From Bispira polyomma (lineage: Eukaryota), in NCBI GenBank assembly GCA_965649765.1, contig OZ287751.1, positions 76,632,001-76,696,000 of the forward strand: 64,000 nucleotides of DNA, given 5' to 3'. The notes beneath the pieces were generated by a model. It worked only from the letters and a program-made list of their open reading frames with translations. It ran no database searches and was not told where the DNA came from. A program made the position numbers and the translations under genes. This document shows positions 25,549 through 33,717 of the stretch, one piece after another. The stretch's first letter is position 1, and each line of letters opens with the position of its first letter.

Positions 25549-28057
25549 GTAAGTGTAGTACTATTTATTATCTAATTATTAAAAGTTACTAAAGTGAATT
25601 TAAACCATAACTACTGAAACTTGAATTGGGTATGTGTTCTTATTGGTATGGCTGAAAGTTAATTTTATGAAATTTGAAAAGATTTGAAGTTTCAAAATGT
25701 TTATATGGTGAAGTTATATGTGGAATTTATGGGTTTAATTTAGTTACCCTTTTTTATTAAAACTAATATAATATGCAATTGCTTCTGTTGCACTGTCATT
25801 ATATGGATTTTTATTTGTCCAATTATGCAAGTATTTTATGTGGTAGGGGAATCTTTTAAGAATAATAATTAAAAAAAATAGTTAACTCGTGTAAAATAAT
25901 TCTGTGTATTATTGCATACCTGATTGTTATATTAAATTGACTCGTTTAAAAATTGACATAGCTCACTTATTACCTCTTTTTTTATCAATCCATCAAAGCC
26001 TTTAATAATAAGATCAGTTCAATTCGTTTGGGCCTTGGTTTTTCATCTTTTAAATTAAACTTGTCAAATGTATATTACTAGCTCTGTGTAAGTGTGATGT
26101 AATGAAGATCAAAAGTAATTTTCCTCCTGACACGCAACTCGTGAGGTGGGGTGAAAACTTTCTGGTTAAAAAAAAAGTACAACTTTGTATTCGTTTTCAA
26201 TAAATTGCTCTGTTGTATGTTAAGAATGTAGTTTACCCTCTTGATTATATTGTATTGGACAGATCTGACACTCACATGCTCGTTTGTAGGGGTAATGTGT
26301 ATTATATTGATGTCTATATTAAACTATCACAAAAAGAAGCATGTTACTTTGGGTGTTCTAATTTATTCTGATGGGTAGAGAACATTTTAGTAAGTGAAAG
26401 CTTTTCCTTTCTGGAAATTCTCCCTTATAAAGTAAAACATGGTTCTGAGAAAATAATAAAAATATGTGCACAGACACACGCTTATCTCCCCCCCCCCCCC
26501 CCCCCCCTCAAAGTAGAACTTAATATATGGTAAGATTTGCCGTGGCATGAGAACTTTATTGATGAATTATATATTTACTAACGACCCCTATCACTTTAAT
26601 GGCCATCAATATTGGTGCCACGTTCTTAGATCCAGTGGTTCCTCCCTATTGGCTAGTAAATCCCCACCTTGCAGGTCACCTATGGCATTTCCAAAGAGTC
26701 CACACTTATGAGCCCCGTCTTTAACGGCCACAAGAAAGGAACTTGCCACCTCACTCAGCGTGACGTATATTGTGTCTGCATGCGGCGGAGTGATTTACAG
26801 TCACACTCATATTTGCCGCGAAAAGAATTCGCGGTTTTGATAAATCGTCTGCAATTGTCTTTTCTGAGATCAAAATAGGGCCCCACATTTTATAATGTAT
26901 TAAATCGTGCCCCATTTTTTTTGACAAATGATAGAAGGTCTCAATATATACATTTAAACACTTAACCCAGTTATAGTTGATGCTCCCCAGTTTGAATTGA
27001 TTATGACTCTTTTTCTCCCACAATTTATCTAGTTATGGAAGATATCTGTCAGTTCTTGACAAGGGTTGTTTGGAAGGAACACTTGTGATGTATGAGGGAA
27101 CTGTCTTGCATTCACTTTCCTGTATTTGAAGAGAGCATTGTTGATATATAAACAGGGCGTTGTTTTATCCTAATTAAATTCCAATACTTTTTGCCGAGTG
27201 GGAAATACCCCAGAGGCTATTTATAGTCAGTGGAAAAACGTGAGACGAAAGAGTAAAAACAAAAGTTAATATATTTGCCAGGTTGCTGAGAATTTTGTAA
27301 TTCTTTATGCTCTAATGGTAGACATTAAATAAAAATTTAAAGTCTTAGTATTTCCCGCCATAGGCTAAAAATGGACCACGTGGTTTAGCCACCTGGTAAC
27401 TGGGATTTGAGAGTGAGGGGAAAAAAGTGAAAAGACAATCCCTCCATATAACCATGCAGACAGACTTCTGTGCTTTTAAACTGCCTTTCCTAATTGAGAT
27501 TAATTAAGTTAAAATGAATAGTAAGTTATTGTACTGTCTAGCTGAGCCTTTCAACTGTGGTTTTGGGCCCCCAAGGCTTATTCTTTGTGTTTTCTTCTCT
27601 CTTTTTTTTTTTTTTTTCTTTCATTACATGAAAAGTAACAAAAAAATGTGGGTGTTATGGGAGGCGAGACTTGTGGCACCTAATACTGTGAGGTAGAGCA
27701 ATTTACAGGTTACACCACAGCCTCCAACCAAAACAGAAAACAGACCCCAGTCCACCTTTTGTGGTTTAGGCTGATCCCTTGATTATTATAATGTTGCTGT
27801 TCCTTGTATTTATGTAAGAGCCTTTGTTGGACATTCAGTAGACCTTGCTGTGGGGACATCTGTGTGTGTAAAAAAAAAAAAAAAAAAAGCTGAAGGAAAA
27901 TTACATGTATATAAAACCTATATAATATATATAATATAACCAACCCGCCCCGCCCCAATAGACCAGGGATGACAAGTGAATACATGAGGTAGAATATTAT
28001 TGTTCTATTTAATTGACTTACTTAAAAGAGTATTTTGCTATTTGTTTTTACCTACAG

Positions 28058-28965
28058 GCGAGAAGGTGAGCCCGAAATTGTGAAGGGCAAATTCTTATGG
28101 GGCAACGCGATCGATTTCAACACACATGCAGTTAACTTTCTGCTGAAGACGGCCAAGACGTACGGCAATGTGTTCACACTGAGGCTCGTCAACCAGCACA
28201 TCACCATCGTGAATGACGTGCACAGCTATGAGGCCCTGCACAAAGAGAGGAACTTTGACTTTGATCCCATCCAGAAACAGGTCAACTGGAATGTGTTCAG
28301 CTTTGTGCTCAAGGACGCCAGGAAGATGATCAAAGACACGGGCAGGACAGTCCGTGGCGAGAACCTGGGCAAGTGTATGACCTCTTTCGCAGACAAGCTA
28401 GACGAGTCCTTCACCACGGTCATGACCGACAAACCCACAGAGGGCAAGTGGATAGATGATGGTCTACGCAAATTTGCCGGCAAGACCCTGTTTGACGCCC
28501 TCTTCAACACCATCTTTGGCTCCCCCAATGGCCACGTGTTCAACTCTCAGAATACCTACCACAACTTTGAAGTCTTCCACAAGTATTTCAACCACTTCTG
28601 GCTCGGTGTGCCAAAAGCCCTTTTCCCATCGGCCATGAAAGCCCTGGGAGAGATGGTACAACAACCCGGATCTGATGAGCTCCTCTCCAGGCCAGATGCC
28701 TCCGACTACATTCGTACCGCAGTGACCTACATGAAGGAGAAAGGTCAAACAGAGAGTGACATTTCGGGACACAACCTGGTCTACTTGCACGTCAACTACA
28801 ACACCTTTCGTCTGGCCTTCTGGGTGATGGCGGACCTCCTAGAAAACAAAGCTGCCTACCAGGCTCTCATGGAAGAACTGCAAGAGGCCATAGCTGTGAG
28901 GAGAGTGGATGATGACAGTCCAGTAGAGTTCACAGGCAAAGACATTGAAAACCTGCCCATTCTAG
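28058..28965 (+). CDS. Cytochrome P450, clan 7 (CYP7/CYP8-like), exon 2
   Basis: Acceptor cctacag|, donor G|gttagt. RREGEP..KG...WGNAIDF....FL......YGNVFT, LFNTIFG and NTFRLAFW align with CYP7A1 (RRQTGEPP, HGHVFT, YLTIFG, NTIPATFW). Confidence 0.95.
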
Positions 28966-28994
28966 GTTAGTACCTGAGCTATAATCCTCTTTGA

Positions 28995-29162
28995 TAGTGG
29001 AACCTCTATTATCTTCTAAATATTTAATGTTATAAACTCTATTCCACTCTCGCCCAAATGTTCAAGTTTTTTCCTATTGTTTAAAAGAGAAATTTCCTGT
29101 TTTATTTTATAAATCTTCTATTGTCCAAACTAAATATGTTTTGGACAATAGATGTTCTACTG
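28995..29162. mobile_element. Tc1/mariner(pogo)-type MITE
   Basis: TIRs tagtggaacctctattatc and gacaatagatgttctactg, followed by TA. Same family as 8348. Confidence 0.7.
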
Positions 29163-31678: not shown

Positions 31679-31857
31679 AGAGTGTATGTCAGGAATCCCT
31701 ACGTCTGTCCAGTGGGGTCTTCATGGTCAGATACGTCCAAGAAGACACCTGGTTCAGCAACTCACAAGGCCAGAAGTACCTGATCCGGAAGGGGGATCGT
31801 GTAGCCATGTACCCTCCAGCCATACACAAAGATCCAGAGATCTTTGAAGATCCATTG
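31679..31857 (+). CDS. Cytochrome P450, clan 7, exon 3 (K-helix ExxR)
   Basis: Acceptor atttccag|, donor |gtaaga. Translates (E)SVCQESLRLSSGVFMVRYVQEDTW...YLIRKGDRVAMYPPAIHKDPEIFEDPL, matching CYP7A1 ESLRLSS...IRKDDIIALYP..HLDPEIYPDPL. Confidence 0.95.
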
Positions 31858-33429: not shown

Positions 33430-33717
33430 ACATACAAGTACGACAGGTTTGTCGACCAGAAGTTCTATAAGGGCGGCAAAGAAGTGAAGAATCCTGTGAT
33501 AGGATTTGGGTCTCTCTGCCCAGGGAAGCGCTATGCCATCCTCCAGCTCAAGTGGTTCGTCATGACCACACTCGCCCGATTTGAAATGGTTCTAAACGAT
33601 GGGGAACACGCAGTATACGATTCCCAGTACCACGGACATGAAATCCTGCCGCCCGTAGAAGATATCCAGATGAGATACCGAGTGCGGGAAAACCACCCCA
33701 CCCTGAAGTTTGTCTGA
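33430..33717 (+). CDS. Cytochrome P450, clan 7, exon 4 (heme-ligand Cys, stop)
   Basis: Acceptor tttttacag|, phase 0. Translates TYKYDRF...FYKGGKEVKNPVIGFGSLCPGKRYAILQLK...GHEILPPVEDIQMRYRVR...*. Spliced CDS is 1464 nt, giving 487 aa. Confidence 0.95.
   Translation, partial: TYKYDRFVDQKFYKGGKEVKNPVIGFGSLCPGKRYAILQLKWFVMTTLARFEMVLNDGEHAVYDSQYHGHEILPPVEDIQMRYRVRENHPTLKFV

Follow-up and report, generated by a model that had tools for sequence, protein, structure and literature searches.

The question raised by this locus is what chemistry a cytochrome P450 carries out when the oxygen-activation segment of its I helix has been remodeled. The window, by which we mean the whole 64,000-nucleotide stretch of Bispira polyomma DNA analyzed (contig OZ287751.1, forward strand), contains such a gene, and a sequence-only reading had taken its noncanonical I helix as a sign of isomerase or peroxide-type chemistry.

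A clan 7 P450 gene with four exons

The I-helix segment, HNLVYLHVNYNTFRLAFW, is the translation of positions 28770 to 28823 (forward strand) and lies inside the 908-base exon 2 of a P450 gene with four exons, GT-AG introns and an open frame without internal stops that encodes 487 amino acids, the exon joins being inferred from splice signals and homology (Table 1). Three of the exons matched Pfam p450 (PF00067). The protein has the ExxR motif, the heme Cys and the P450 fold, the latter judged from a model of the Capitella orthologue. Its best solved relatives were CYP7A1, prostacyclin synthase and CYP8B1, and it was closest to CYP7/CYP8, with an I-helix Asn at the Thr site as in other clan 7 enzymes. 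When exon 2 was compared with this genome, a single match was obtained, the window gene itself (one of five candidates).

Table 1. Positions in the window of the P450 gene and its principal features
Feature	Positions	Strand	Basis
Exon 1 (aa 1-29), with the start codon and an N-terminal segment predicted to anchor in the membrane	25460..25548	+	ATG, GT donor; N terminus matches Capitella CYP3067A1; joins from splice signals and homology
Exon 2, helices A to J including B', F and I	28058..28965	+	
His204, F helix, in place of the Asp of the clan 7 Trp-Asp-Arg triad (D210 in CYP8B1)	28578..28580	+	Alignments
I-helix segment His268-Trp285, one residue shorter than in other clan 7 P450s	28770..28823	+	Translation, alignments
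His274, family defining; by homology over the heme, at the site of the ceiling Trp or at motif position 1	28788..28790	+	
Asn278, clan 7 Asn at the site equivalent to the catalytic Thr	28800..28802	+	Alignments
Exon 3, K-helix ExxR (E338-R341) and Arg350, likely heme-propionate ligand	31679..31857	+	
Exon 4, meander, heme loop, L helix, beta-4 hairpin, stop codon	33430..33717	+	
Shortened heme loop FGSLCPG, thiolate Cys422 at 33517-33519, three residues deleted	33505..33525	+	
Gln431 at Cys+9; Glu in most P450s compared	33544..33546	+	
His462-Glu463, beta-4 tip (F482-G483 in CYP8B1); Glu463 family defining	33637..33642	+	

Three sets of contigs compared with the gene revealed nothing about its splicing. 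In the introns, two short stretches (28990 to 29140 and 26483 to 26512) are repeats that gave a pile-up of many unrelated contigs. As for neighboring genes, about 97 of the 140 candidate frames in the window, picked by eye, were compared with Pfam and rendered one weak match below the cutoff, which was judged to be due to chance. No Pfam match was obtained for a 342-codon Pro/Gln-rich open frame that follows an acidic patch (6140 to 7168, forward strand); it probably represents the 3' portion of a gene lying upstream, to which stretches at about 2112 to 2354 and 3873 to 4073 may contribute additional exons. Elsewhere in the genome, many long frames for CYP4-type P450s (EGHDTT) were observed (L004 to L011, on contigs C1, C3, C4, C5, C8, C9 and C13), several of them clustered and apparently with few or no introns.

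The gene belongs to the CYP3067 family

In P450 nomenclature, at least 40% identity is required for membership of a family and 55% for a subfamily. The window protein showed 60.4% identity to Capitella CYP3067A1, whose gene also has four exons, formed a single clade with it and contained the same gaps in the I helix and the heme loop. The window gene is thus a CYP3067-family (clan 7) cytochrome P450. The Capitella protein used here, P0021, matches CYP3067A1: all four motif positions, the length of 495 aa and a sequence stretch in the published supplement agree.

The search with the exon 2 protein yielded 133 matches at E values up to 1e-10, of which the best 120 were used. The named CYP3067 members came from annelids, molluscs, nemerteans, one brachiopod, one bryozoan and the flatworm Macrostomum, that is, from six spiralian phyla, and included the leech Helobdella, Dimorphilus and the tubeworm Lamellibrachia; among the named members of the matches listed, none lay outside those six phyla. 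CYP3067 formed one branch with full support both by FastTree (18 of 113 rows) and by IQ-TREE (16 of 39 rows, 100/100). CYP7A and CYP8 fell outside that branch in these trees, which were unrooted and built without CYP39 or an outgroup from another clan, and in the 39-row IQ-TREE analysis the CYP8 rows formed a branch of their own (100/100) outside CYP3067. A sister grouping of CYP3067 with tunicate proteins (FastTree, support 93) was not relied on. The ESM Atlas returned clan 7 and general P450 clusters only. Owenia possesses both a CYP3067 gene and a clan 7 gene of the Trp type. The Owenia fusiformis record P0121 (923 aa) contains two near-identical Trp-type clan 7 domains and probably reflects an annotation in which two tandem genes were fused.

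The family to which the gene belongs already bears a name. Dejong and Wilson grouped CYP3067A1 with CYP7 in 2014 and called its I-helix and heme-loop gaps "peculiar", with no explanation in the passages available; they added that its full function "may be questioned", yet reported EST support in Capitella (PMC4229089). In the literature searched, which excludes most subscription journals, nothing was found on the function, range or key residues of CYP3067; the family name occurred in a single paper, and neither the motifs nor two gene identifiers gave a text match. The family is thus named but unexplained, and these searches turned up no published account of its range, its key residues or its probable chemistry. 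What is new here is that CYP3067 is one clade across six spiralian phyla and that the I helix is its most conserved stretch. A relationship with CYP3050A1, the only P450 of schistosomes and an essential one, was considered and rejected on the description of that protein, in which the P450 signature is kept and ExxR is lacking (PMC4694641).

The doubt voiced in 2014 about full function (PMC4229089) would suit a decaying or inactive gene, an explanation that we consider highly improbable. The frame is open, the splice sites are canonical, and there is EST support for Capitella CYP3067A1 (PMC4229089). In addition, identity to the full-length orthologues, which span phyla, was 50 to 60% in 30 of 30 cases, and conservation peaks in the odd helix itself; this conservation largely refutes decay.

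His274 and Glu463 define the family

The 18-residue interval from position 268 to 285 ranked second of 470 in identity to the window protein (0.90, against a mean of 0.52, over 30 full-length orthologues), and the first-ranked interval overlapped it. Thus, the oddity of the I helix is not due to chance. His274 was present in 114 of the 116 rows with a residue at that place (best 120 of 133 matches), the two exceptions being fragments that leave the exon earlier.

To these data a column test was added, with 30 core rows, 22 divergent rows and 82 other clan 7 rows. Of the 483 columns tested, His274 and Glu463 were the only two that never varied within the family and did not occur in the other clan 7 rows. 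Glu463 was found in 30/30 core, 11/11 divergent and 0/81 other clan 7 rows. The values for His274 (30/30, 20/20 and 0/82, respectively) are partly circular, because about half of the divergent rows, which include three near-copy pairs, were picked after the His helix had been seen and the 82 outside rows were picked for a Trp...Asn motif. Among 32 rows chosen by profile score alone, His274 was present in all 32 and Glu463 in the 24 of 24 that reach it, and the His was likewise present in each of five long divergent proteins that had been selected for their score and short loop. His274 was also the only invariant polar residue of the I helix, and Cys422 was invariant in all rows reaching it.

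The shortened proximal loop described in the sequence-only reading was borne out, the Cys loop being three residues shorter (FGSLC versus FGSGATIC). Loop length and helix type went together: of the 41 rows with a short Cys loop, 37 had the His helix and the remaining 4 were fragments lacking that region, whereas none of the 103 long-loop rows had it (120 of the 264 rows had no scorable loop, and 8 long loops mismeasured by the pattern were of full length by eye). The residue at Cys+9 followed the same division: it was Gln in 37 of the 41 rows with a short loop, and Glu in 93 of the 103 with a long one. By family, Gln occupied Cys+9 in 30/30 core rows and 22 of 24 new rows (the other 2 having Glu), and Glu did so in 75 of 81 other clan 7 rows; among the solved relatives, CYP7A1 and CYP8B1 have Glu, and the human and zebrafish prostacyclin synthases have Ser and Ala, respectively. 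Cys+9 is the position of Glu366 in P450cam. That Glu is treated as a proton source (PMC2830628).

As for other pocket residues, His204 was found in 30/30 core, 12/20 divergent and 32/32 new rows and His462 in 30/30, 7/10 and 23/24, respectively; Gln102, Asn106 and Asn108, which with His462 and Glu463 make up the B' and beta-4 pocket residues, were present in 30/30 core rows. A His-His-Tyr triad in place of Trp-Asp-Arg was dropped as a candidate, given that Tyr459 occurred in only 3/10 divergent and 10/24 new rows. Asn278, the key residue of the sequence-only reading, was kept in 17/20 divergent members and Tyr277 in only 8/20, so that both were rejected as family key residues. Besides varying in the family, Asn278 is common to the hydroxylases CYP7A1 and CYP8B1 (N286 in the latter, which depends on a reductase; PMC9463588), and for both reasons it is not diagnostic of an isomerase.

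Several extra copies appear to evolve fast (P0124 and P0128 from Macrostomum, P0130 from Aplysia, and P0122, P0127 and P0129). In all of them His274 and Glu463 are kept and Asn276, Tyr277, Asn278 or Thr279 is changed, which suggests one chemistry with different substrates.

Probable location of the invariant residues over the heme

The absence of (A/G)Gx(D/E)T from the segment was confirmed by the translation. Its being one residue shorter than that of CYP7A1 also held, although the place of the gap is ambiguous. HMMER pairwise alignments with CYP7A1, CYP8A1 and CYP8B1 and a profile-profile alignment each set one gap between His274 and Asn278, with His274 opposite the Trp, whereas MAFFT set it opposite the following Ala. 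Comparison of HNLSFLWASQGNT, from the Owenia Trp-type clan 7 protein, with HNLVYLHVNYNT gave the same one-residue difference. The clan 7 stretch W-A-S-Q-A-N-T aligned to F-E-G-H-D-T-T in 8/8 ordinary P450s of this genome; therefore, Asn278 corresponds to the catalytic Thr site and Tyr277 to the acid site.

By homology, His274 would be on the heme-facing side under either gap placement. In CYP8B1, W281 and A282 are both within 5 Å of the ligand, as is F482, and W281 stands directly over the iron at 8.2 Å (PMC9463588); D210, W281 and F482 are first-shell active-site residues (PMC10033310). In the CYP8B1 chain the counterparts of His204, His462 and Glu463 are D210, F482 and G483, respectively; the triad Arg is lost. 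The nearness of Glu463 is judged from its neighbor F482, because G483 is unmentioned in the CYP8B1 passages searched. For the Capitella orthologue, two heme-free AlphaFold2 models (pLDDT, 90.4 and 86.6) showed an unbroken I helix (270 to 300, Capitella numbering), the short heme loop being the least confident part near the heme. The fit to CYP7A1, CYP8A1 and CYP8B1 was about equal (Z, 39.4 to 41.1), with a Z of 41.1 and an rmsd of 2.4 Å over 441 residues for CYP7A1.

A His in this position might act as a sixth ligand of the iron, making the Cys/His heme a heme, redox or gas sensor or a ligand-gated switch instead of an enzyme. Counted from Asn278, His274 falls on motif position 1, the place of Ala264 in P450 BM3, and in the BM3 A264H mutant the His coordinates the iron and the protein is inactive (PMC11900375); that His274 is the sole invariant polar residue of the helix points the same way. 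Counted from upstream, it falls instead at the place of the Trp that lies 8.2 Å from the iron in CYP8B1 (PMC9463588). Furthermore, the B' and beta-4 pocket residues are invariant in the core rows, fitting a specific ligand or catalysis, and no output domain is attached. We consider iron ligation unlikely.

More unlikely still is a second metal above the heme, bound by His204, His274, His462 and Glu463. The FeB center of NO reductase is a comparable three-His-one-Glu site. All four residues are invariant in the core rows and nearly so in the new ones (32/32, 32/32, 23/24 and 24/24, respectively), and the equivalents D210, W281 and F482 are jointly first shell in CYP8B1 (PMC10033310). Nevertheless, the losses of His204 and His462 in divergent members speak against such a site, and no P450 of this design was found in the literature searched. 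Both metal-centered explanations are less likely than peroxide chemistry or ordinary monooxygenation.

A putative acid-base pair and peroxide chemistry

Five features occur together on one branch: invariant His274, invariant Glu463, the change of Glu to Gln at Cys+9, the helix deletion and the loop deletion. These linked changes fall in the elements of a P450 that are responsible for O2, proton and electron handling, and a departure from ordinary O2 activation is plausible. We tentatively favor, at somewhat less than an even chance, a putative His274-Glu463 acid-base pair over the heme that would drive peroxide chemistry, with a sterol or lipid as substrate and with no need of O2 or NADPH. Judging from homologous structures, His274 would lie at the ceiling of the distal pocket with Glu463 near it. 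The hydroperoxide of a sterol or fatty acid, or else H2O2, would bind to the ferric heme; with Glu463 orienting it, His274 would shift a proton and the O-O bond would break, after which the substrate would be rearranged, as by an isomerase, or oxygenated, as by a peroxygenase. The helix deletion may remove the O2-binding kink, and the loop deletion may alter the reductase-docking face. With such an acid-base pair, a hydroperoxide or H2O2 would be used directly, in the manner of CYP74 enzymes (PMC10813956). A sterol-derived substrate is favored by ancestry only. The peroxide chemistry of the sequence-only reading still leads, now on account of His274, Glu463, the Cys+9 Gln and the deletions; the reasons originally given for it were weak.

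The heme-thiolate enzyme chloroperoxidase has an acid-base pair of this kind, His105-Glu183, and the geometry would be inverted here, because in that enzyme Glu, not His, is nearest the heme (PMC6417270). The residue at Cys+9 does not follow the proposal throughout, since Glu is back in 2/24 new family rows and is absent from 10/103 long-loop rows.

The same pocket could instead belong to an ordinary reductase- and O2-dependent monooxygenase that acts on a polar sterol or oxysterol. His274-Glu463, together with His204, would then stand in for the Trp-Asp-Arg triad, either anchoring the substrate or relaying protons; we hold this to be possible, if doubtful. CYP51, an ordinary monooxygenase, has a His-Asp pair that does such proton relay work. 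In agreement with monooxygenation, the membrane anchor, ExxR, Arg350 and Cys422 are intact, and the replacement of the triad Asp by His204 goes with the Trp-to-His change. A Trp-type CYP7 query of this genome, moreover, found its best match in the window gene, with none better among 74 candidates (a comparison in which small-exon genes could be missed), so that this gene may carry the sterol role of the clan. CYP8B1, for its part, hydroxylates with an Asn and without an acid-alcohol pair (PMC9463588). Against monooxygenation, four changes in the O2 and electron machinery (the helix deletion, the loop deletion, the Cys+9 Gln and the new His-Glu) arise together, and the coexistence of both gene types in Owenia implies that CYP3067 is not simply a CYP7 replacement. 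Since clan 7 monooxygenases already function without the acid-alcohol pair (PMC9463588) and the I-helix motif of CYP51 itself has a His (AGQHTS) (PMC4229089), two facts that weigh against peroxide chemistry, monooxygenation stands close behind it.

A bolder form of the peroxide proposal, which we judge somewhat more doubtful than the acid-base pair itself, is that CYP3067 converged on peroxidase chemistry, placing a His-Glu pair (or, bolder still, a three-His-one-Glu metal site) in a clan 7 pocket, and would be the sole conserved hydroperoxide-processing P450 of Lophotrochozoa, substituting for clan 74 and making a sterol or oxylipin signal of worms, molluscs, brachiopods, bryozoans and flatworms. 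Aplysia neurons have an orphan hepoxilin-forming activity, of which no mention was found in the review searched. As weak context, lipoxygenase matches above the Pfam cutoff were observed at six places on four contigs of this genome (C10, C6, C14 and C1), and clan 74 is absent from Capitella (PMC4229089).

Significance

That a P450 has been kept at 50 to 60% identity over six phyla, with its oddest stretch the most conserved, makes one important job likely. The pattern of changes in the alignments suggests that CYP3067 may act on peroxides instead of oxygen. In practice, the database labels CYP7A1-like, CYP8B1-like and prostacyclin synthase-like are misleading for CYP3067 in transcriptome studies of molluscs and annelids. 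Should His274 and Glu463 prove to be a catalytic pair, CYP3067 would represent a naturally occurring peroxygenase or isomerase among the P450s, with a design for which no precedent was found in the literature searched. It would then be useful to enzymologists and in biocatalysis, and would open a way into sterol or oxylipin signaling in a large animal branch.

Comparison with known systems

The closest counterpart, Capitella CYP3067A1, matches the window protein in its gaps and exon number and is 60.4% identical to it, but comes from another species, and the passages of the 2014 paper give no range, key residues or function (PMC4229089). CYP7A1 and CYP8B1 share with CYP3067 the fold, the I-helix Asn, ExxR and the beta-1-4 Arg. 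In contrast to them, CYP3067 has His for Trp with one residue deleted, His for the triad Asp with the Arg lost, a heme loop shorter by three residues, Gln at Cys+9, His-Glu at the beta-4 tip and a clade of its own; the window protein neither grouped with CYP7A nor kept W-A-S-Q-A-N-T.

The likeness to CYP8A1 and CYP74 drawn in the sequence-only reading was not sustained by descent. CYP8A1, prostacyclin synthase, has the clan 7 fold and the Asn and lacks Glu at Cys+9, as CYP3067 does, and it works without reductase or NADPH (PMC9463588), as proposed for CYP3067. Both the Trp and the Trp-Asp-Arg triad are kept in CYP8A1, as is a heme loop of full length, whereas CYP3067 has His274 and His204 and no Arg; the window protein did not group with CYP8 in the tree and is not a CYP8 orthologue. 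Enzymes of the CYP74 clan (allene oxide synthase, hydroperoxide lyase and epoxyalcohol synthase) resemble CYP3067 in their remodeled I-helix groove and need neither O2 nor a redox partner (PMC10813956), as CYP3067 may not. Their heme-binding region has nine extra residues (PMC10813956), whereas that of CYP3067 has lost three, and the closest solved relatives of CYP3067 belong to clan 7, not CYP74.

P450 BM3 A264H has, like CYP3067, a His four residues before the Thr equivalent; it is engineered, inactive and has a full-length helix, whereas the His of CYP3067 is natural and comes with a deletion. Chloroperoxidase and the unspecific peroxygenases have a fold unrelated to that of P450s. They offer a working analogy in combining a Cys-ligated heme with a distal acid-base pair, either His-Glu or Arg-Glu (PMC6417270), and the invariant His and Glu of CYP3067 map to pocket elements by homology. 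In chloroperoxidase it is the Glu that is directed at the heme, whereas in CYP3067 the His would be the nearer of the two.
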